DNA of 50,048 bases from Escherichia phage vB_EcoS_IME347, in sequence record MH051918, one strand, 5' to 3'. Of this stretch, positions 1,308 to 49,515 are shown piece by piece (the stretch's first letter is position 1; every line of letters starts with the position of its first letter). A model generated the notes under the pieces. That model was not told where the DNA came from. It saw nothing but the letters and a program-made list of their open reading frames with translations, and searched no databases. Made by a program: the position numbers and the translations under genes.

Positions 1308-1556
1308 ATGAAAAAGGTCACGGTTAAGCTGTTAAATCACGGCGGGTATGACGGATTAAAGGGCGTTGAATTCCCGCAGGTAGTGGAAGGATTCGAACAT
1401 CCGACGCTGGATTACATTGACGTTCCGTTTGAGGAGTTGGAGCGCATCGGGTACGACAAGGCGAAAGGTCGCTGCTGTGGAAACCTGCCGGACTGCGCTG
1501 AAGGTAGCCCGTGCCTGACATTCTTCAAGTTTAGCGAAGCGGAGGTGATCGCATGA
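1308..1556 (+). CDS. hypothetical small early protein, 82 aa
   Basis: Track ORF with a GAGGG RBS, preceded by cassette 1234-1277. Confidence 0.8.
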   Translation: MKKVTVKLLNHGGYDGLKGVEFPQVVEGFEHPTLDYIDVPFEELERIGYDKAKGRCCGNLPDCAEGSPCLTFFKFSEAEVIA

Positions 1557-1753
1557 AAAAGGTTCCAATGTTCATCGCTGGCGGCATCGCCAAATATTAC
1601 GCCGTAATTGGCAATAAATTCTATTACTGGAGCGAATTCCAAAAGTGCTGGTGTGGCTCAGTTAACGATCCGGGGCAAAATGAGCGACGCCTCGAAAGGG
1701 CGATCCGTGAGGGTAAAGTTTTCCTAGCCACCATCAAGGGGGAAATCCTATGA
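1553..1753 (+). CDS. hypothetical small early protein, 66 aa
   Basis: Track ORF. ATGA start/stop overlap with the upstream gene. Confidence 0.75.
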   Translation: MKKVPMFIAGGIAKYYAVIGNKFYYWSEFQKCWCGSVNDPGQNERRLERAIREGKVFLATIKGEIL

Positions 1754-1860
1754 ATCCACTCGCTTTCGGCACGGCGATTTTCTTTCTGGCGACGGGGCAT
1801 TTTTGGCTGTTCATCGTCACCATGATCTTAATTGGCGCGGGAGCCTTTGACGATGATTAA
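1750..1860 (+). CDS. micro-ORF, 36 aa single-helix membrane peptide
   Basis: Hand-translated, below the track cutoff: MNPLAFGTAIFFLATGHFWLFIVTMILIGAGAFDDD. AAGGGGGA RBS 6 nt upstream. ATGA overlap with the upstream stop, and its end overlaps the next start. Confidence 0.6.
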   Translation: MNPLAFGTAIFFLATGHFWLFIVTMILIGAGAFDDD

Positions 1861-2053
1861 GATGAAATGTGTGCGGTCAACCTACGCGCTGTTTTCGGCT
1901 GGTGAGGTTTACGACTTCAAACGGGCTGGTGAGGCCGGGCGCTTCACGGTGTACGAGTACGAGCGCGAGGGCGCACTGTATCGCTTCGGTCTTGATGATG
2001 CCGGAGCTAACGAAACTGACGGTAATTTTATGCAATTCGAAGAGGTGAAATAA
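1853..2053 (+). CDS. hypothetical small protein, 66 aa (KxKC...G-x-Y family)
   Basis: Track ORF 1832..2053 (TTG start) trimmed to ATG 1853 (MIKMKCVRST...). GGAG lies about 10 nt upstream. Confidence 0.65.
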   Translation: MIKMKCVRSTYALFSAGEVYDFKRAGEAGRFTVYEYEREGALYRFGLDDAGANETDGNFMQFEEVK

Positions 2054-2250
2054 TGTACATTTTAACTGCTGTTCTGGTTCTGGTGATTCTGGTTCTGTAT
2101 GTGTGCGGCTGCTTCCTCATGCGGGCTTTCCTGCGGACGAATGACACAACCGATCAGGATAAGTGGAAGCCTGTCCTTACGTGGCCTGTCATCATGATTG
2201 ATGTTATTTGGGATTGTGCAATCAAAAACCACAAGAAATTTGAGTGGTAA
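2053..2250 (+). CDS. small membrane protein, 65 aa
   Basis: Track ORF with TAATG overlap. N-terminal hydrophobic helix ILTAVLVLVILVLYVCGCFL. Confidence 0.75.
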   Translation: MYILTAVLVLVILVLYVCGCFLMRAFLRTNDTTDQDKWKPVLTWPVIMIDVIWDCAIKNHKKFEW

Positions 2251-3027: not shown

Positions 3028-3492
3028 ATGTTACGCAAAGAAGATATCACCTACCCAATCAGCTTCGTTAGCTTCGGAGTTGGCACCTTTACATTCACCA
3101 ACGAGAAAGGCGGCCACATGGTGTGCGCCAATGGCTACGAGCAACGCGAAATCGAATGCAGGGTGGGGGAATTTATAGAAAAAGCGAACAAGCACAACCC
3201 GGACAACGATCCTAAGCGTGACTACAACTACACGATGCCGGGCGCGGCGGCTGAGGTTAAGTCTGGTGAGTGCAGGGCTGAGTATATGCCAATCGGATCA
3301 ACTCTAACGGGCGTCCGCATGGATGATGGAGATTGGGCTGAACTGAGAATCACTCCTCGCCGGATTGAGGTTGATTCCGAGGTGATTACCTTCCTGCTGC
3401 ATGCGCACTACAGCACCAACACCAAGCAGTCACGTTTTGCCGGGGAAGTGAGCATGAAGCGCGATGCGATTGTTCGTTGGGAGAAGGCATAA
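3028..3492 (+). CDS. hypothetical early protein, 154 aa
   Basis: Track ORF 2962..3492 trimmed to ATG 3028, because 2952-2996 is a promoter cassette. GAGAGGAAAG RBS. Confidence 0.75.
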   Translation: MLRKEDITYPISFVSFGVGTFTFTNEKGGHMVCANGYEQREIECRVGEFIEKANKHNPDNDPKRDYNYTMPGAAAEVKSGECRAEYMPIGSTLTGVRMDDGDWAELRITPRRIEVDSEVITFLLHAHYSTNTKQSRFAGEVSMKRDAIVRWEKA

Positions 3493-3644
3493 TGGCAACT
3501 TGGTACTTAATCGCGATCACCTATTACGCCGGGGTTCAGCCGATCCCGTTCGACTCGCACAAGGCTTGCATTGATGCGCGAGAGGTAATCAAGAGAAACA
3601 ACCCGACAACCGCAAGCTTGCAGGTTGTATGCGTTAAGAAATAG
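3492..3644 (+). CDS. hypothetical small protein, 50 aa
   Basis: Hand-translated, below the track cutoff (MATWYLIAITYYAGVQPIPFDSHKAC...VCVKK). TAATG overlap. Its stop is the TAG of box 3641-3658. Confidence 0.6.
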   Translation: MATWYLIAITYYAGVQPIPFDSHKACIDAREVIKRNNPTTASLQVVCVKK

Positions 3645-3937: not shown

Positions 3938-4167
3938 TTATCGTCAACACCGAAACGGGCGAGGTCATGGATAACTGCATCGTTATCGACGACAAGCCCA
4001 AGCCGAAGAGCAAGGCAGGAACTTACGTTAGGACGGTCTGCAAGGCTCCCGGATGCGGGAATATTTACGAGGCGAAAGCCTCAGACCTGAAGCGCGGTTG
4101 GGGATTGACCTGCTGTAAGTCATGCGCAGCCGTGGTTCGCGAACTTAAAAAGAAAGGGCGTTGGTAA
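3934..4167 (+). CDS. small Cys-rich (putative Zn-binding) protein, 77 aa
   Basis: Track ORF. The GTG start overlaps the upstream TGA (GTGA). The motif CKAPGCG...CCKSC suggests a zinc ribbon. Confidence 0.6.
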   Translation: MIIVNTETGEVMDNCIVIDDKPKPKSKAGTYVRTVCKAPGCGNIYEAKASDLKRGWGLTCCKSCAAVVRELKKKGRW

Positions 4168-4654: not shown

Positions 4655-4694
4655 CACGAATTGCTAAAACAATAATCCGGGGCTATGCCATAAT
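4651..4694 (+). promoter_or_regulatory. box/-10 promoter cassette
   Basis: Box ATAGCACGAATTGCTAAA. Inverted repeat GGGGCTAT/ATAGCCCC. 22 nt spacing to TGcCATAAT (hexamer 4689-4694). Confidence 0.65.
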
Positions 4695-4725
4695 AGCCCC
4701 ACACCAAACGAAAGAGGAAGTAGAT

Positions 4726-5106
4726 ATGAAATTCAAATGCACAACCGACACAACGAAGAAATTCACTCCGGGCAAAGTCTACGAGACTTCGGCGAGCAAC
4801 GCACTTCACAACGTGGCTATCCGTGACGACTCCGGGCGGACTCGCGTATTTCGTGTAACTCATAACGGCGAAGGTATTCGCTGGAATGTCGGCGGCAATA
4901 AGTCTGCGGTTATGAAAAAGCTTCATCCTACCTTCCGCATCGACGAGTTGGGTACTGTCCATATCAGCGACGGCGAAGTAACCCGAGTCAAGATCGGCGG
5001 TTGGTGCGAGACTGCGGAATCTAAGCGCGAACGAATCACGAAAATCGCTATCGCGGCAACTCTGGTGCTGGTGAGTGTGGCTGTATTCGTGGCGAATCAC
5101 TTCTGA
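4726..5106 (+). CDS. hypothetical protein with C-terminal TM helix, 126 aa (KxKC family N-terminus)
   Basis: Track ORF 4630.. trimmed to ATG 4726, downstream of cassette 4651-4694. AGAGGAAG RBS. C-terminal helix IAIAATLVLVSVAVFV. Confidence 0.75.
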   Translation: MKFKCTTDTTKKFTPGKVYETSASNALHNVAIRDDSGRTRVFRVTHNGEGIRWNVGGNKSAVMKKLHPTFRIDELGTVHISDGEVTRVKIGGWCETAESKRERITKIAIAATLVLVSVAVFVANHF

Positions 5107-5154
5107 TTTAAAAGGGGAATCTCTCTGAGCGGTTCCCCATAACAAGGAATTCAA

Positions 5155-5280
5155 ATGGTAGACGTGAATCACTGGAATGAACCGCCAAAGCATGACGTTC
5201 TGTTTTGGTTTCTCGGGTTGCTGATAACGCTCGTTATCATCTTGAAAGGCGTGATGGTGGCGGAATGGATTCTGACCTGA
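5155..5280 (+). CDS. micro-ORF, 41 aa single-helix membrane peptide
   Basis: Hand-translated: MVDVNHWNEPPKHDVLFWFLGLLITLVIILKGVMVAEWILT. AAGGA RBS 6 nt upstream. Confidence 0.55.
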   Translation: MVDVNHWNEPPKHDVLFWFLGLLITLVIILKGVMVAEWILT

Positions 5281-5474
5281 TTAACTACGAAGATGCAGCG
5301 CGTGACGCTATCGATGGTATGCTGCCAAATTCGAAGCGTGTGGCTCACTATCGCGGTTTTAAGGGTTCACCTGTTAAACTGTATTGCGAGATTTTGAAGC
5401 TCTCAGAAGTCGATACAGCGCGTTTAGAGGCATACGATTTTAAGCGTTTTTCGATAACCATCGAAACCAAATAG
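5265..5474 (+). CDS. hypothetical small protein, 69 aa
   Basis: Track ORF 5205.. trimmed to ATG 5265 (MDSDLINYED...). Overlaps the end of the micro-ORF by 16 nt. Its stop is the TAG of box 5471-5488. Confidence 0.6.
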   Translation: MDSDLINYEDAARDAIDGMLPNSKRVAHYRGFKGSPVKLYCEILKLSEVDTARLEAYDFKRFSITIETK

Positions 5475-5514
5475 CACGAATTGCTAAAAACCTATCAGGG
5501 GAATGCGCTATGAT
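5471..5514 (+). promoter_or_regulatory. box/-10 promoter cassette
   Basis: Box ATAGCACGAATTGCTAAA. Inverted repeat GGGGAAT/ATTCCCC. 22 nt spacing to TATGAT (5509-5514). Confidence 0.6.
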
Positions 5515-5544
5515 TCCCCTACACCAACAAGCGAGGACGACAAA

Positions 5545-5976: not shown

Positions 5977-6020
5977 ATAGCACGAATTGCTAAAACTTGC
6001 TCAGGGGCATTTGTTATAGT
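5977..6020 (+). promoter_or_regulatory. box/-10 promoter cassette
   Basis: Box ATAGCACGAATTGCTAAA. Inverted repeat GGGGCA/TGTCCC (one G.T position). 22 nt spacing to TGtTATAGT (hexamer 6015-6020). Confidence 0.65.
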
Positions 6021-6059
6021 GTCCCTCGTTGAGTTAAGCAACCAATAAAGGAAAAAGCG

Positions 6060-7174: not shown

Positions 7175-7217
7175 TAGCACGAATTGCTAAAAACTCGGCG
7201 GGGTAAGCTGTTATAGT
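7174..7217 (+). promoter_or_regulatory. box/-10 promoter cassette
   Basis: Box ATAGCACGAATTGCTAAA. Inverted repeat GGGGTAA/TTACCCC. 22 nt spacing to TGtTATAGT (hexamer 7212-7217). Confidence 0.65.
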
Positions 7218-7253
7218 TACCCCATCGAAAACAACCAATCAGAGGAAACGCGA

Positions 7254-7645: not shown

Positions 7646-7685
7646 CACGAATTGCTAAAAGTTCCGCAAGGGCATTTGATAGAAT
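7642..7685 (+). promoter_or_regulatory. box/-10 promoter cassette
   Basis: Box ATAGCACGAATTGCTAAA. Inverted repeat GGGCA/TGCCC. 22 nt spacing to TGaTAGAAT (hexamer 7680-7685). Confidence 0.65.
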
Positions 7686-7718
7686 GCCCTTATTGAAACG
7701 AAGCAAAGGAAAATAGAA

Positions 7719-7928: not shown

Positions 7929-8260
7929 TGTTACAGGTCAACCTTTCAGAGAAACAGGCTCGCGAGTTTTACGACTTCTGCTTGCGCGTCGCTGGTGTGC
8001 AGGACAATCCAGTAATCCGGGAAATGTTCAGCGTTATTGAACGCCAGATCCTGCCGGACTCAACCAACAAGGCGGAGTTCGCAGCGTGGAGGAGCAAGCG
8101 AATCACTCCGGCAATTGTCGAAGCGTGGAAGCGCAAGAACGGATCGCCTCGCATCGTGTTTGCGAACGGTGAACCTCGTCGAAATATGGGTTGCGTCGTT
8201 CTCGGTGAATATGCTGATCTGGCAACCGGGCGAATGGTAACGGTGATGCATCATGATTAA
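7928..8260 (+). CDS. hypothetical protein, 110 aa
   Basis: Track ORF 7835.. trimmed to ATG 7928 (TAATG overlap with the upstream stop). Confidence 0.7.
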   Translation: MLQVNLSEKQAREFYDFCLRVAGVQDNPVIREMFSVIERQILPDSTNKAEFAAWRSKRITPAIVEAWKRKNGSPRIVFANGEPRRNMGCVVLGEYADLATGRMVTVMHHD

Positions 8261-8408
8261 GTTTATCCACACTTTCAAAGTGTCGTCCGGCAAAGAGCGG
8301 AAAGAGATCGTGAAGGTTTACGGGAGTCCGGTTAAGGCAAAAGAGCAATTGCGTTTGCTTGGTGGTCGGATTGATGTTGTTAAACATGTTGAATTCTGGA
8401 GTAAGTAA
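8253..8408 (+). CDS. hypothetical small protein, 51 aa
   Basis: Hand-translated: MIKFIHTFKVSSGKERKEIVKVYGSPVKAKEQLRLLGGRIDVVKHVEFWSK. GGTGA RBS 6 nt upstream. Fills an otherwise unexplained gap. Confidence 0.55.
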   Translation: MIKFIHTFKVSSGKERKEIVKVYGSPVKAKEQLRLLGGRIDVVKHVEFWSK

Positions 8409-9308: not shown

Positions 9309-9533
9309 ATGACAACTTTTTTATTCATTCTCGCCTTTATCGCTGTTTTCGTGCTTGGTATCGCGTCTGCTCTTCTGCTTATCGCCTTTATCGTGAAGCA
9401 CGACGCCGAAACTGACGAAGGCGTGTGGCTGACGTACAATCGCAGTGAGGATGTTTGGAAGTGCTTCGGTGATTTGCCAGCAGTCTACGCGAAGGCTCAA
9501 ACTCACAAAAAGCCGATACAAAAAATCTGCTAA
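9309..9533 (+). CDS. small membrane protein, 74 aa
   Basis: Track ORF. N-terminal helix FLFILAFIAVFVLGIASALLLIAFIV. Followed by terminator 9538-9561. Confidence 0.75.
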   Translation: MTTFLFILAFIAVFVLGIASALLLIAFIVKHDAETDEGVWLTYNRSEDVWKCFGDLPAVYAKAQTHKKPIQKIC

Positions 9534-17960: not shown

Positions 17961-18334
17961 ATTACGATTCTGTGAGAAAGCTGGCAAAGGACGGGATTGA
18001 TTTCTTTGCCGATCCTATGCTGGGTGGTGGCGATTGTACGCTTATTCGCGGCGGCGGCGTGAAGATGGTTAACGGGGTTGAGGTTGTTCAGCCTCATGAA
18101 ACCTTCGTCATTCGCGGGGTTATTCGTGATGTAAATTCCCGTGACGTTAACGGCGACACTATCCGGGCTGAAGATAAGCGAGGGATTTTCACCTATCAGG
18201 TAGATATCGCCAAGGGGAACTGGATGCTTATCGAAGGCGTGAAATATGAAGTTGTCGATCCTCGCCCTATAAAACCTTGCGGTGCGGTTGTCGCCTATCG
18301 CCCAATCCTTCGGAGGGTTGCAGTCTATGGCTAA
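17957..18334 (+). CDS. head-tail joining protein (putative), 125 aa
   Basis: Track ORF 17873.. trimmed to ATG 17957 (ATGA overlap). Confidence 0.6.
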
Positions 18335-30053: not shown

Positions 30054-30084
30054 TGGTGTTTCCTCGTTTCGTTTTGATGAATGC

Positions 30085-30128
30085 AGTATAGCCCCGTTTC
30101 CGGGGCTTGTTTTAGCAATTCGTGCTGT
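30085..30128 (-). promoter_or_regulatory. box/-10 promoter cassette
   Basis: Read on the minus strand: ACAGCACGAATTGCTAAA. Inverted repeat GCCCCG/CGGGGC. 22 nt spacing to TATACT. Drives the secreted-protein gene. Confidence 0.6.
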
Positions 30129-31096: not shown

Positions 31097-31127
31097 AGCA
31101 TTTTCCTCCCAAAATTAATGAATACAC

Positions 31128-31156
31128 ATATTAGCTTTTTGCCCTCGGGGAGTCAA
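31128..31156 (-). promoter_or_regulatory. sigma70-like promoter TTGACT-17-TAATAT (leftward fibre-accessory operon)
   Basis: Read on the minus strand: TTGACT (31156-31151), a 17-nt spacer, TAATAT (31133-31128). About 30 nt before ATG 31096. Confidence 0.6.
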
Positions 31157-31344
31157 AGTTACAGATTTTGCGGTGTAACATCTGTCTACTTTTGTAACCA
31201 AAATGAGGCGTGACAAAATTCGCTCATTTTTTAATCAGCATGACGCACCTTAAGATATAGAAAACTCCTTATAATATATATAGATAGATATAAATTGTTA
31301 TTTTACCTTTTATATATAAATTAGAGGTGTAACCGTTGTATATA

Positions 31345-31368
31345 TTGTCACGGTGTATTTTGTGATGC
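31345..31368. repeat. 24-nt box ATTGTCACGG-N3-ATTTTGTGAYG, copy 1
   Basis: Inverted half-sites GTCAC-N10-GTGAT (31347-31366). Confidence 0.55.
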
Positions 31369-31497
31369 GCTCAATTTTCTACATCATAATCATGTGAATT
31401 CTGTATTGCGGTATTTTTCTATAAACACAGTTACATTGTATACAGTGGTTACGCCGCAATAAAACACGCCTCAAACGCTTGATATTTATGGACTCGC

Positions 31498-31522
31498 ATT
31501 GTCACGGGTAATTTTGTGACGC
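31498..31522. repeat. 24-nt box, copy 2 (perfect GTCAC-N10-GTGAC)
   Basis: GTCAC at 31501-31505 and GTGAC at 31516-31520. About 30 nt upstream of the -35 of promoter 31552-31579. Confidence 0.55.
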
Positions 31523-31551
31523 CCGAATACACTCATTGACATCGTTACAGG

Positions 31552-31579
31552 TTGACTAAATGCCGGGAATGGTTATACT
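31552..31579 (+). promoter_or_regulatory. sigma70-like promoter TTGACT-16-TATACT (exo-erf-ssb)
   Basis: TTGACT at 31552-31557 and TATACT at 31574-31579. About 30 nt before ATG 31610. Confidence 0.6.
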
Positions 31580-31609
31580 GTCCACATCATCAACGAAGGA
31601 GATAAACGA

Positions 31610-41173: not shown

Positions 41174-41438
41174 AGAATCTGGAAGGCAAGCCGTTTGGAG
41201 TCACGCAAAAGAAACGGGGCTGGCGGACGGGATCGCACTAATTGCTAAATACTTCGATATAAAAGACGTTAGTATTATCGGCAACGGGAAGATAACCTTC
41301 ATCGAAGAGCTTCCCCGGAAGTGCCACCGAGTCCCGGCAACTCCCGGACTTGAGTTTTACCGGGAGGAGGGTAAGCGAATCATGCAAGAATTTAAGGCGA
41401 GCAAAAATGACAAGAGAACTTCCCGGCTTAAACGGTAA
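41166..41438 (+). CDS. hypothetical small protein, 90 aa
   Basis: Track ORF with a GTG start that overlaps the upstream end by 8 nt. Contains an internal box/-10 cassette at 41232-41275. Confidence 0.55.
   Translation: MIKESGRQAVWSHAKETGLADGIALIAKYFDIKDVSIIGNGKITFIEELPRKCHRVPATPGLEFYREEGKRIMQEFKASKNDKRTSRLKR
41232..41275 (+). promoter_or_regulatory. box/-10 cassette located inside an ORF
   Basis: Box ATCGCACTAATTGCTAAA, encoded as GIALIAKY. 22 nt spacing to TAGTAT (41270-41275). No obvious inverted repeat. Confidence 0.4.
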
Positions 41439-41652
41439 CTTTGACGGCTACCCGATCGTTGAGTTCGAAGGGGAGAAATATCGGGAGATTCCATTCTCTG
41501 ATTGGTTGCCTTCGGATTTCGAAACAGTTCCATGCAGCAGGGGGGGCGGTCTTATCCCGATGTGGTATAGCCCGGCTCGAAACCTTATGGTGTTTGATAA
41601 CGGCTGCGGAATGAAACCCTCCGATCTCAAAGTCTGGTTGAGGAAACTGTAG
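41407..41652 (+). CDS. hypothetical small protein, 81 aa
   Basis: Track ORF 41350.. trimmed to ATG 41407 (MTRELPGLNG...). Overlaps the upstream ORF by 32 nt. Confidence 0.6.
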   Translation: MTRELPGLNGNFDGYPIVEFEGEKYREIPFSDWLPSDFETVPCSRGGGLIPMWYSPARNLMVFDNGCGMKPSDLKVWLRKL

Positions 41653-41655
41653 AAT
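41647..41655 (+). promoter_or_regulatory. CTGTAGAAT -10-like nonamer
   Basis: Overlaps stop 41650-41652. Upstream of the HTH-phosphoesterase gene. Confidence 0.35.
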
Positions 41656-41725
41656 GTTCGGTTACTTTGGTGTAGTATTCACCCCCGTAATAGCTTTCAC
41701 TCTCATTTATTTAATTGTAATGTAA
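41654..41725 (+). CDS. micro-ORF, 23 aa hydrophobic peptide
   Basis: Hand-translated: MFGYFGVVFTPVIAFTLIYLIVM. GAGGAA lies 8 nt upstream. Confidence 0.4.
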   Translation: MFGYFGVVFTPVIAFTLIYLIVM

Positions 41726-41737
41726 GGAATTAGAAAT

Positions 41738-42877
41738 ATGTCAATGTCAAAAATCACAACCGAACAGCTTATCGAAGAGCGCGAAAACGGCCTGACCCTT
41801 CGCGAGATCGCGGAGAAGTACGGGATGCATATCCGCACGGTTGAGGCTCGACACGCGAAGCTTGCAAAGGAAGGTCACTTCCACGGCAACAAGCACGTAG
41901 CCGCCAACGTTCCGACCGGGTTCGCCGTAAAAGGTACGTCCGTCATGATTGACGCCGAAGGCAACGAAAAGGTTCGCTGGGTTAAGACCGATCAGGACAA
42001 AGAGAAGATTTACCAACTCATGCAAGCGGCGCAGGTTGCATTTTGCGAAGAGTTGCCGCGCGAAGCCCCAACCCCGATCGAAATAAACAAGCGATTCGAC
42101 GAGGATTCGCTGGCGCTTTACCCGGTATTCGATCTTCATATCGGCGCACTGGCGCACAAGCACGAGTCCGGCGAGAACTACTCCACCGATATCGCGGAAG
42201 ATGTTCTGAACAAGTATTTCGGCTATGCAGTCGGCAAGGCTCCTAACGCACAAAAAGCCGTCCTGTTAATCGGCGGTGACTTCCTGCACTCTGACGGCCT
42301 TGACGCTGTTACCCCGGCAAGCGGTCATGTTCTGGATCAGGACTCGCGTTATGCCAAACTGGTTTACGTCGCAATCCGCGCTACTCGCCGGGCGATCGCT
42401 AAGATGCTGGAGAAACATGCTGAGGTTGAGGTTCAGATTATCGAAGGCAACCACGATCAGGCAGGTATGATTTGGCTACGCGCTGCAATGGCGGCATACT
42501 ACGAGGACGAGCCGCGCGTGAACGTTGACGTTAGCCCGATGATTCTGCACAAAACCCGTTGGGGCAAAACGCTGTTAGGCTACACTCACGGTCACACGAT
42601 GAAGAAAGCGGACACTCGCCTTGCAGCAATGGCGGCAGACTTCCGCGATGATTTCGGCGCGAGCAAGTACGTTTACACTCACAGCGGTCATTGGCATCAC
42701 CAGACGATCACCGAGCATACGTTGGGTATCGACGAGGTTCACGGTCAACTCGGGGCGAAGGATGCTTATGCGGCTCGCGGCGGCTGGCGAGCGTACCGTC
42801 AAGCGGCTGTTATCGTGTACTCAAAAGAGTTTGGCGAGATCGGGCGCTTTATCTACCGTCCAGAAATGACGGCGTAA
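41738..42877 (+). CDS. HTH + calcineurin-like metallophosphoesterase fusion, 379 aa
   Basis: N-terminal LTLREIAEKYGMHIRTVEARHAKL looks like an HTH. Phosphoesterase motifs DLHIG, GGDFLH, EGNHD, YTHGH and HSGHWHH follow. Confidence 0.7.
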   Translation: MSMSKITTEQLIEERENGLTLREIAEKYGMHIRTVEARHAKLAKEGHFHGNKHVAANVPTGFAVKGTSVMIDAEGNEKVRWVKTDQDKEKIYQLMQAAQVAFCEELPREAPTPIEINKRFDEDSLALYPVFDLHIGALAHKHESGENYSTDIAEDVLNKYFGYAVGKAPNAQKAVLLIGGDFLHSDGLDAVTPASGHVLDQDSRYAKLVYVAIRATRRAIAKMLEKHAEVEVQIIEGNHDQAGMIWLRAAMAAYYEDEPRVNVDVSPMILHKTRWGKTLLGYTHGHTMKKADTRLAAMAADFRDDFGASKYVYTHSGHWHHQTITEHTLGIDEVHGQLGAKDAYAARGGWRAYRQAAVIVYSKEFGEIGRFIYRPEMTA

Positions 42878-42922
42878 ATAGCACAAATAGCTAAAGACAA
42901 ATCAGGGGTAACGAGTTATAGT
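42878..42922 (+). promoter_or_regulatory. box/-10 promoter cassette
   Basis: Box ATAGCACAAATAGCTAAA. Inverted repeat GGGGTAA/TTACCCC (the same arms as the copy at 7201-7224). 23 nt spacing to TATAGT. Confidence 0.6.
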
Positions 42923-42951
42923 TACCCCACACAAACAAAGGAGATTTAGCA

Positions 42952-43059
42952 ATGAAAGAGTTCATCTTGAAAACTGTAATCCCATTCGTTGCCGGAGCAG
43001 CAGTAACGGGCTTCTTTATTTGGGTTTTGTCTTTGGCTGGAGACTTCAACGGTTTCTGA
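42952..43059 (+). CDS. micro-ORF, 35 aa single-helix membrane peptide
   Basis: Hand-translated: MKEFILKTVIPFVAGAAVTGFFIWVLSLAGDFNGF. AAGGAGA RBS. First ORF after cassette 42878-42922. Confidence 0.6.
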   Translation: MKEFILKTVIPFVAGAAVTGFFIWVLSLAGDFNGF

Positions 43060-43069
43060 GGAAAAATAA

Positions 43070-43246
43070 ATGACTCGTGTAAAGTGCATTCGCAATGATT
43101 CCAAATCGCTCCCGTTCCAAGTGAACCAGATCTACTCTGTGGGCTACCATCACGGCGGCGGGATTTACGAGATCTACGACGGGCAAGGCTCTGCAATCCA
43201 AGCGCCTCTGAACGGATTCTATCTCGAATTCATTGCCGTAAAATAA
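43070..43246 (+). CDS. hypothetical small protein, 58 aa (KxKC family)
   Basis: Hand-translated: MTRVKCIRNDSKSLPFQVNQIYSVGYHHGGGIYEIYDGQG... GAGGA lies 7 nt upstream. Followed by terminator 43272-43297. Confidence 0.6.
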   Translation: MTRVKCIRNDSKSLPFQVNQIYSVGYHHGGGIYEIYDGQGSAIQAPLNGFYLEFIAVK

Positions 43247-46641: not shown

Positions 46642-47058
46642 TTACAAGTATTTCGCTTCGAACGTTGTCCCGTCCGCGATGGAGAATCCCACCTCTTCGC
46701 GGAACAGAGTCCAGCGACATCCTTCGCTATCGAAGATGTACCCGGCGACGCCACCGAGCGCCCGACCACTTTCAACCTGATAGCGCTTGCCTACTTTGAA
46801 GGACTTCTTCATCGGATTCTTGTGATCAAGCCCGGTACACTTCAGGGTTTTCGTTTTCAACTCGGTGAACTTCGCAAAGTGTATTTCATCGACGTTGTGG
46901 ATCTGGAATTCGTCATGCTTTCCGAGCGGGTAAAACTTTCCGTCAGGGTGCTTTACTTCTCGCGTACCGTCGTCATGCTCGCGGCCTTTATACAGGTTGT
47001 TTGTTGTGAATCCGGTAACTGATTCCGCTGAAGTGCATTTCAGTTTGATAGTTTTCAT
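46642..47058 (-). CDS. hypothetical protein with two KxKC family repeats, 138 aa
   Basis: Track ORF. Contains IKLKCTSAE... and TLKCTGLD...KVGKRYQV. Cassette 47097-47140 upstream. Confidence 0.75.
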   Translation of the reverse strand: MKTIKLKCTSAESVTGFTTNNLYKGREHDDGTREVKHPDGKFYPLGKHDEFQIHNVDEIHFAKFTELKTKTLKCTGLDHKNPMKKSFKVGKRYQVESGRALGGVAGYIFDSEGCRWTLFREEVGFSIADGTTFEAKYL

Positions 47059-47601: not shown

Positions 47602-47640
47602 CTTTATTTCCTTGTTTTGTCGTTTCGTTTCGATGGGGTG

Positions 47641-47684
47641 ATAATATCAAATCACCCCGAGGTTGTTTTAGCAATTCGTGCTAT
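47641..47684 (-). promoter_or_regulatory. box/-10 promoter cassette
   Basis: Read on the minus strand: ATAGCACGAATTGCTAAA. Inverted repeat GGGGTGA/TCACCCC. 22 nt spacing to TGaTATTAT. Confidence 0.65.
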
Positions 47685-47827
47685 TTTGAAATGCGATATT
47701 GCATTCCGCTCAAGTCCTCAGGCGACACCGAATAACACGGCTCCCAAGTTCCGTTGACCTTATTGTATTTGCGCACACCTCCAGCGATGCGATACATGCC
47801 GCCGTTATTGTCGTAATAAGTAATCAT
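47681..47827 (-). CDS. hypothetical small protein, 48 aa
   Basis: Hand-translated: MITYYDNNGGMYRIAGGVRKYNKVNGTWEPCYSVSPEDLSGMQYRISK. ATGA overlap with the upstream stop. Its own stop is the TAG of box 47667-47684. Confidence 0.6.
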   Translation of the reverse strand: MITYYDNNGGMYRIAGGVRKYNKVNGTWEPCYSVSPEDLSGMQYRISK

Positions 47828-49437: not shown

Positions 49438-49471
49438 TTTTGGGAAATCTCTCTGATTGGTTGATGTGTTA

Positions 49472-49515
49472 AGTATGCCCCGAATCCGATCAGGGCGTTT
49501 AGCAATTCGTGCGGT
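49472..49515 (-). promoter_or_regulatory. box/-10 promoter cassette
   Basis: Read on the minus strand: ACCGCACGAATTGCTAAA. Imperfect inverted repeat GCCCTG/CGGGGC. 22 nt spacing to CATACT. Confidence 0.55.

Follow-up and report, generated by a model that had tools for sequence, protein, structure and literature searches.

The window analysed here is the whole genome of Escherichia phage vB_EcoS_IME347 (50,048 bp, Drexlerviridae), which DNA searches group with the T1-like siphoviruses. Its nearest relatives are Sertoctavirus SRT8, BrunoManser and IME-JL8, which are approximately 77% identical to it across the late and lysis region. Our subject is a set of eight short open reading frames (ORFs) that a preliminary description of the genome had singled out as translationally coupled small genes. 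Four of them form the hydrophobic set, namely c1 (1750–1860), c2 (5155–5280), c3 (41654–41725) and c4 (42952–43059), all on the plus strand. The remaining set consists of c5 (3492–3644), c6 (8253–8408) and c7 (43070–43246), also on the plus strand, and c8 (47681–47827) on the minus strand. The coordinates, ATG starts, stop codons and lengths attributed to the eight were all verified on the sequence.

Each of c1–c4 had been described as containing one hydrophobic helix, and this is borne out. Their 19-residue Kyte-Doolittle maxima (KD19) lie between 2.04 and 2.54; a KD19 of at least 2.0 is reached by 0.8% of 128 spurious small ORFs within long genes. All four have a hydrophobic segment of at least 19 residues that is predicted to insert into a membrane. 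On the insertion-energy (dGapp) scale of Hessa et al. (2005), the sums for c1–c4 are −1.7 to +0.7 kcal/mol, as against +8 to +18 kcal/mol for c5–c8. For c5–c8, the preliminary description proposed soluble-looking products with start/stop overlaps. The overlaps are present at c5 (1 nt), c6 (8 nt) and c8 (4 nt), whereas c7 overlaps nothing; c6, c7 and c8 do look soluble, whereas c5 is not plainly so, having a hydrophobic N-terminus and two conserved cysteines. A canonical Shine-Dalgarno sequence is absent at c6 and c8, which instead have their upstream overlaps.

Chance is ruled out as the source of the eight ORFs. In shuffled slots, an ATG-initiated ORF that fills the slot arises in 0.3–2% of trials. 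A crude gene model based on codon usage and ribosome-binding sites (RBSs), trained on the long ORFs of the window, ranks every one of the eight as the best occupant of its slot, and dropping them leaves unexplained holes of 70–180 nt inside units that are delimited by repeated intergenic cassettes.

The reading frames are conserved, which the preliminary description had named as a check on its proposal: seven of the eight are kept as ORFs in other T1-like genera, and the eighth, c8, persists in nine metagenomic loci of close relatives. They are also under purifying selection. Among close-clade variable sites, where these are sufficient for the test, there is a synonymous excess in c1 (4 synonymous, 0 nonsynonymous, p = 0.003), c4 (5 and 1, p = 0.003), c5 (6 and 2, p = 0.002), c7 (5 and 2, p = 0.008) and c8 (6 and 3, p = 0.003). 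When clustered at 90%, the protein variants of c1 and c2 differ by conservative changes that are compatible with a membrane location. Overall, the earlier interpretation of the eight ORFs is supported, although the roles it put forward (acting on host envelope, division or transport proteins, or in superinfection exclusion) are generic candidates.

The ORFs had also been described as lying below the cutoff of the ORF track. This is true only of the tool used at that stage: c2, c5, c6, c7 and c8 are annotated in the NCBI record of IME347, and records of relatives include c1 and c4. In IME347 itself, c1 and c4 are missing from the NCBI record and are present only as Logan/ENA gene calls, while c3 was found in no protein collection searched. 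Gene callers applied to metagenome contigs consistently call c1, c4, c5, c7 and c8, pass over c6 despite 100% identity there, and put an 89-residue model starting at TTG where c2 lies. Matches of the small ORFs to PHROG and Pfam are to phrog_25570, phrog_5579, phrog_3955, phrog_4788 and PF23896. Pfam gave no above-cutoff match for c1–c4; NCBIfam, including its small-toxin models, gave nothing at E ≤ 1 for c1–c4, three other c3 variants or gp73; and profile searches of the PDB gave nothing useful for the c1, c3 and c4 families.

c1 encodes a 36-residue single-helix peptide, MNPLAFGTAIFFLATGHFWLFIVTMILIGAGAFDDD, and is a homolog of T1 gp73 (ST73). As had been noted, it starts on the stop codon of the gene before it, ATG and TGA sharing the sequence ATGA, and its last 8 nt are overlapped by the next gene, the ATG of which lies at 1853 (ATGATTAA). 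The upstream partner (1553–1753, plus strand, 66 residues) is called in all close relatives, and the downstream partner (1853–2053, plus strand, 66 residues) matches phrog_9181. The same unit contains a 65-residue protein (2053–2250, plus strand, phrog_9755) with an N-terminal transmembrane helix of KD19 2.96.

The best blastp match of c1 among T1 proteins is ST73, which is also 36 residues long (45% identity, E = 8e-8 in a small database), and hmmscan matches c1 to phrog_25570 over 33 of its 36 positions (E = 6e-5). tblastn matches to c1 are confined to T1-like phages (47 records). The positions invariant between c1 and gp73 are N2, A9, F12, G16-H17, L27 and A30-G31-A32-F33, followed by an acidic end. 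T1 gp73 further resembles c1 in being a single hydrophobic helix in the left-arm early region, between homologs of gp77 and gp70, with its start on the upstream stop and its end overlapped by the next gene; its immediate neighbors, however, are not homologous to those of c1. The annotated counterparts of c1, LeonhardEuler bas13_0062 and T1 ST73, each have overlaps of 4 nt, whereas those of c1 are 4 and 8 nt, and their identity to c1 is no more than 42–45%. Of the five genes in its unit, c1 alone has a recognisable counterpart in Tunavirus, which argues that it is the constrained element of the unit. The slot is left unannotated in ISF002. Within the T1 clade, gp73 has 21 synonymous and 13 nonsynonymous sites (p = 1e-6); between c1 and gp73, divergence is saturated for a dN/dS comparison.

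c3 encodes a peptide of 23 residues, nearly all of them hydrophobic (MFGYFGVVFTPVIAFTLIYLIVM). It lies on the plus strand between the homolog of gene 17 (41407–41652, 81 residues, 42% identity to ST17), whose stop is 1 nt before the c3 ATG, and the homolog of gene 16 (41738–42877, 379 residues, phrog_704 “DNA repair exonuclease”), whose Shine-Dalgarno sequence TAAGGA contains the c3 stop. The RBS reported for c3 is present, as a GAGGAA ending 8 nt upstream of the ATG.

The c3 family was surveyed using the 379-residue gene 16 homolog as an anchor, for which 75 Drexlerviridae loci were fetched. Nearly all of these contain an ORF of 22–28 residues ending 2–14 nt before the gene 16 ATG. They represent approximately 28 distinct peptides, with grand averages of hydropathy (GRAVY) of 1.45–2.37. 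A hydrophobic micro-ORF is present in 45 of 50 distinct Drexlerviridae junctions, compared with 0.31 expected under a composition-preserving null. T is enriched at codon position 2 only (58% vs. 28–29%), and substitutions avoid this position (4 of 29); it is this avoidance that carries the selection signal for c3. The ratio of nonsynonymous to synonymous polymorphism (pN/pS) for c3 is 0.15–0.42, and 0.15–0.20 against Sertoctavirus. The variants are often mutually unalignable, and an alignment of 20 sequences has zero invariant columns; what they have in common is M-[KR] at the start, Pro in the center and Tyr a few residues before the C-terminus. In most cases the ATG overlaps the gene 17 stop (ATGA, TAATG) or abuts it, and the TAA lies within the TAAGGA of gene 16. 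In Webervirus, the micro-ORF overlaps the 3′ end of gene 17 by approximately 56 nt in a different frame. Among 17 distinct nucleotide versions of this overlap, the micro-ORF peptide is identical in 10, versus 4 for the gene 17 tail, which additionally takes non-conservative changes.

tblastn finds c3 of the Tunavirus/Sertoctavirus type in 57 records and of the Webervirus type in 348, nearly always unannotated; the family is omitted from nearly every record because it falls below the length limits of gene callers. Variants of the family have no match in PHROG, Pfam, NCBIfam or the PDB. Apparent annotations in SH6 and Smiley proved to be of the neighboring gene only. Among the few members with a genuine annotation is gp38 (PENG_38) of the Klebsiella phage Penguinator, a hydrophobic ORF of 25–28 residues in the equivalent slot, ending 3 nt before the gene 16 homolog; its peptide is essentially unalignable with c3 (4–9% identity). 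The c3 family is the only really new item among the eight, and a modestly novel one.

Several other explanations for c3 were tried and rejected. A frameshift that would add c3 to gp17 as a membrane-anchor extension is not consistently possible, because the offset between the gene 17 stop and the micro-ORF ATG differs among lineages (−4, −1, +1, +4, +14). The possibility that the c1 or c3 sequence is instead a riboswitch or another structured RNA finds no support: Rfam gave no match, and the fold z-scores (−0.43 to +1.81) are not significant. Coupling through the unmasking of a sequestered gene 16 start would require a hairpin there, and none was found.

The gene 16 homolog has an N-terminal segment resembling a helix-turn-helix (HTH) or sigma-70 region 4, together with a weak calcineurin-like phosphoesterase signal (E = 0.046). 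One record names it “sigma-70 region 4 domain-containing protein,” and a PDB search gave no sequence relative. Its real activity therefore looks unsettled despite the “DNA repair exonuclease” label. In some phages, HNH homing-endonuclease genes lie between the c3-type micro-ORF and gene 16 (loci L059 and L063, at 1817–2497 in the latter), and the micro-ORF is retained upstream of the insertion. In T1, the HNH gene ST15 (L098, 4529–5011) lies between gene 16 and gp14.

c2 (HOT14_gp16) encodes 41 residues, with a polar N-terminus that contains an NxWNEPP motif followed by one transmembrane helix. Its homologs are T1 gp67 (ST67) and BrunoManser bas12_0071, which have 40–43% identity and share the motif. 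c2 is part of a module that begins with a gp68-like gene (4726–5106, plus strand, 126 residues, 41.6% identity to ST68) encoding a C-terminal membrane anchor, and ends with a gp66-like gene (5265–5474, plus strand, 69 residues, 48% identity to ST66) that overlaps c2 by 16 nt. The gp68-like gene and c2 are separated by a hairpin, GGGGAAT...GGTTCCCC (5107–5154 in the window, 4001–4034 in T1), which is found in all three genera. The order gp68-like gene, hairpin, c2, gp66-like gene is kept in the window, T1 and BrunoManser, as is the C-terminal hydrophobic segment of the gp68-like protein. T1 gp67 and bas12_0071 are like c2 in having the N-terminal motif N-W-N-(N)-E-P-P, one helix and an LKG motif, and in following a tail-anchored gp68-like protein and hairpin with the same 16-nt overlap; lengths in the gp67 family range from 36 to 41 residues. 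The T1 record labels the hairpin a rho-independent (intrinsic) terminator, whereas the hairpins of the window and BrunoManser lack a T-run. The 89-residue TTG model placed over c2 in metagenome contigs was rejected: it has no Shine-Dalgarno sequence, and the 69-residue model fits T1 gp66.

c4 encodes a single-helix peptide of 35 residues and is equal to BrunoManser bas12_0041 (80–83% identity). Its C-terminus is invariant (W-V-x-x-L-A-x-x-F-x-G-F-COOH), and AAGGAG lies 8 nt upstream of its start. The preliminary description placed it as the first ORF after a cassette, which is correct: the repeated intergenic cassette at 42878–42951 directly precedes it. The ORF has 15 synonymous versus 9 nonsynonymous sites (p = 5e-5) and a pN/pS of 0.16–0.18 against Sertoctavirus. 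After a further 10 nt comes c7 (HOT14_gp70), which encodes a soluble protein of 58 residues and is followed, 121 nt later, by the holin gene. c7 is a homolog of T1 gp14 (77% identity) and matches Pfam DUF7244 (PF23896) at 98.9 bits, the gathering cutoff being 27. Its pN/pS is 0.11–0.26, and 0.11 against Sertoctavirus. The predicted structure of c7 (predicted local distance difference test, pLDDT, 93) is a five-stranded SH3-like barrel, with TM-scores of 0.6–0.67 to SH3 domains. T1 gp14 and DUF7244 share with c7 the position upstream of the holin and show no difference in kind; what is added here is the barrel prediction.

The linkage of c4 to the lysis cassette is not obligate. In seven loci of several genera, c4 is directly upstream of c7 and beside the lysis cassette. 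In seven Webervirus-like loci, by contrast, it lies approximately 1.7 kb upstream of gene 16, far from the holin and without c7, and in Tunavirus, T1 included, c7 is present and c4 absent. A truncated paralog of the holin was considered as an origin for c4 and rejected, as the likeness is limited to an MK[DE]F-type N-terminus and hhalign gives a probability of 27% over 20 columns (holin PF27028). We note that the N-termini of the gp68-like protein, of a gp7-like protein (46642–47058, minus strand) and of BrunoManser bas12_0070 resemble c7/DUF7244 in the pattern x-K-C-x-x-[ND]-x-[ST]-K-x-[FL]...Y. The DUF7244 matches of the gp68-like and gp7-like proteins are below threshold (19.2 and 12.8 bits, the cutoff being 27), and hhalign gives a probability of 4%. 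The pattern may reflect a recurring SH3-like module that has once been fused to a membrane anchor.

Of the ORFs outside the hydrophobic set, c5 (HOT14_gp10, 50 residues) is a homolog of T1 gp69 (ST69, 36% identity; phrog_5579, E = 1.7e-12) and overlaps the upstream stop by 1 nt. Both proteins begin with a short hydrophobic stretch and have two conserved cysteines (C26 and C47 in c5), features suggesting that c5 may be a mini-protein that is exported and disulfide-bonded, not cytoplasmic. c6 (HOT14_gp25, 51 residues, soluble) matches phrog_3955 (E = 2.5e-12) and T1 gp4 (ST4, 39% identity). It overlaps the upstream gene by 8 nt and is separated from the downstream gene by 1 nt; the junction sequence ATGATTAAG is identical at 8253–8261, between the upstream gene and c6, and at 1853–1861, between c1 and the next gene. 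c8 (HOT14_gp80, 48 residues, soluble) overlaps its upstream gene by 4 nt and is a clade-specific orphan, with no tblastn match in 50,697 phage records. T1 gp4 (L098, 10134–10277) lies in the right arm, in the exact slot that is occupied in the window by the unrelated c8, while its homolog c6 is in the left arm. This exchange indicates that small accessory genes are shuffled between the arms.

The left and right arms of the genome consist of short overlapping genes, interrupted every few genes by a spacer of approximately 66–83 nt. The spacers contain a box (TAG)CACGAATTGCTAAA (a TAGCA-N5-TGCTA palindrome), a GC-rich hairpin and a TATAAT-like hexamer, which the 3′ arm of the hairpin overlaps. 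The 17-bp box TAGCACGAATTGCTAAA has 28 matches with at most three mismatches, compared with 5.4 expected. In the cassette before c4 (plus strand), the elements are the box ATAGCACAAATAGCTAAA, a GC hairpin and TATAGT. Other cassettes of approximately 75 nt are at 973–1048, 1235–1307, 2251–2326, 4655–4725, 5475–5544, 5977–6059, 7175–7253 and 7646–7718, and, on the minus strand, at 30054–30127, 47602–47680 and 49438–49515; others exist. Every one of the eight small ORFs sits inside a cassette-delimited unit. We rejected the idea that the cassettes are canonical sigma-70 promoters with TTGCTA as the −35 element: the box is approximately 22 nt from the −10-like hexamer and so is not a canonical −35, and a generic sigma-70 scan found no enrichment. 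The box looks more like a regulator-binding, operator or activator site; the cassettes may act as promoters.

Within the units, the distances to neighboring genes are short: −4 and −8 nt for c1, −1 for c5, −8 and +1 for c6, −4 for c8, −16 downstream for c2, +1 and +12 for c3, and +10 between c4 and c7.

We consider it likely that the eight ORFs are genuine small genes translated in relay with their neighbors, with c1–c4 as membrane peptides that make specific contacts and c5–c8 as soluble accessory proteins. On this proposal, the ORFs would be housed in tightly packed polycistronic units bounded by the repeated cassette. Ribosomes would pass along each unit by termination and reinitiation, at codons that overlap or nearly abut (ATGA, TAATG, ATGATTAA, or spacers of at most 12 nt). 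Consisting of little beyond one transmembrane helix, c1–c4 would most likely insert into the host inner membrane. There the c1 helix would offer its conserved small and polar positions (A9, G16-H17, A30-G31-A32-F33) and then its acidic tail, c4 would offer the invariant tail ending F-x-G-F, and c2 would work inside the conserved three-gene module with the tail-anchored membrane protein. These features suggest that the peptides engage a membrane protein of the phage or the host through specific helix–helix or tail contacts, and do not disrupt the membrane in bulk. Because its stop lies inside the gene 16 RBS, c3 probably yields a membrane micro-protein and also hands ribosomes on to gene 16. 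c5–c8 would be small soluble accessory proteins, of which c5 is possibly exported. From the sequences, the likeliest role for c1–c4 is that of small inner-membrane accessory proteins made by translational coupling. The patchy, modular distribution of the small ORFs indicates that they are accessory rather than core genes. The genome encodes further membrane proteins (at 2053–2250, 4726–5106 and 9309–9533, the holin and the u-spanin), and c1–c4 therefore add to an already sizeable membrane micro-proteome.

For the c3-type micro-ORF, we tentatively suggest that it is an uncatalogued Drexlerviridae-wide gene, present in more than 400 public genomes and encoding a transmembrane peptide with a specific function of its own. 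It might, for example, bind a host inner-membrane protein, or tether or regulate the HTH-phosphoesterase gp16. What is conserved would be the hydrophobic architecture and not the sequence, and the same frame would also serve to pass ribosomes from gene 17 to gene 16.

Several results weigh against the reading of the eight as relay-translated genes with specific roles. c2 and c6 have very few variable sites for a synonymous/nonsynonymous comparison, and for c3 the synonymous excess within the clade is weak (p = 0.05–0.6). An exhaustive HMMER search with c1 against 1.84 billion representatives returned its own cluster only and did not reach gp73 at a library-wide E ≤ 0.001, so that the link between c1 and gp73 rests on the small-database E-value, the PHROG match at 6e-5, and the equal length and position. 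Two Tunavirus variants of gp73 (L082, 3345–3443; L085, 2428–2526) have Asp or Arg inside the helix, which may indicate relaxed constraint or sequencing errors. RNA folding found no structure that masks a downstream start, so it is the geometry of the junctions that supports coupling. None of the matched families supplies a function for the eight, and literature searches on T1 small genes found no function, ribosome profiling, proteomics or tagging for IME347 or T1.

Four other explanations were weighed. The micro-ORFs, and c3 especially, might be ribosome relays only, with the peptide as a by-product that has no function of its own. The junctions of c3 fit this well, since the stop lies in the gene 16 Shine-Dalgarno sequence and the start overlaps or abuts the gene 17 stop in almost all lineages; so do the weak synonymous excess within the clade and the divergence of the peptides almost past recognition, with no invariant column. 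However, a relay gives no cause for hydrophobicity, and yet the approximately 28 variants all lie at GRAVY 1.45–2.37 against a background frequency of 0.8–4%. Nor does it account for T-enrichment and avoidance of substitutions confined to codon position 2, or for the recurrence of M-[KR] N-termini, the central Pro and the near-C-terminal Tyr at a length that stays within 22–28 residues. We therefore regard a pure relay as unlikely. The idea that all the ORFs lie in non-coding spacers and are open only by chance draws on their shortness, on the lack of a canonical Shine-Dalgarno sequence at c6 and c8, and on the failure of every gene caller to find c3. It is effectively refuted by the comparative data, namely the conservation of the frames across genera, the synonymous excess and the PHROG and Pfam matches, to which can be added the slot-filling probability of 0.003–0.02 for each ORF.

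The other two explanations accept the ORFs as genes and assign them a different role. c1 and c3 resemble peptides of the Ibs, ShoB and TisB class in size and extreme hydrophobicity, and have negative insertion energies, and so could be type-I-toxin-like or viroporin-like, contributing to host takeover by depolarising the inner membrane or making it permeable. This seems very unlikely to us: there is no match to a curated NCBIfam small-toxin model or to Pfam; the genes sit in coupled operons and do not stand alone with an antisense RNA, no structured RNA being matched in Rfam; c1 is in an early-region unit, where collapse of the membrane would hurt the phage; and its conserved small-residue and His positions indicate specific packing. 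For c4, alone or with c7, a role as an antiholin-like regulator of lysis timing, acting on the T1-type holin approximately 300 nt downstream, is suggested by the fact that c4–c7 immediately precede the genes for holin, endolysin and u-spanin, both in the window and in seven loci of several genera, and by the holin-like MK[DE]F start of a single-helix peptide. We consider this role quite unlikely, given the low profile–profile probability against the holin (27% over 20 columns), the occurrence of c7 without c4 in Tunavirus including T1, the Webervirus-like arrangement, in which c4 is remote from the holin (approximately 1.7 kb upstream of gene 16) and c7 is lacking, and the separate cassette and 121-nt gap that stand before the holin.

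Bacteria have a class of small single-pass membrane regulators, such as MgrB, AcrZ, KdpF and MgtS, that are presumed to bind a larger protein within the membrane. c1–c4 resemble these, and the single-helix modulators of phages, in size range, in one-helix architecture and in the presumed mode of action, but there is no sequence relationship, and c1–c4 are located in operons of a virulent phage with overlapping genes. The finding is in this respect mostly ordinary: small phage membrane proteins are a well-known kind, and current understanding is not overturned. Five of the ORFs are already annotated in IME347 and two more in relatives, one of those in the T1 reference record.

The practical consequence for annotation is that the vB_EcoS_IME347 record lacks three real genes, c1, c3 and c4. 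Both phage therapy and model collections make wide use of T1-like phages, and specific inhibitors of host membrane machines are increasingly being drawn from small single-helix phage proteins. The families of gp73/c1, gp67/c2, c4 and c3 are cheap and well-defined candidates for screens for such inhibitors.

Finally, the crude gene model leaves two gaps elsewhere in the window. The first, of 264 nt at 18063–18326, corresponds to a coding sequence of 378 nt in relatives and probably hides a missed head–tail gene. The second, of 513 nt at 31097–31609, lies at the divergent junction before the exonuclease VIII gene.

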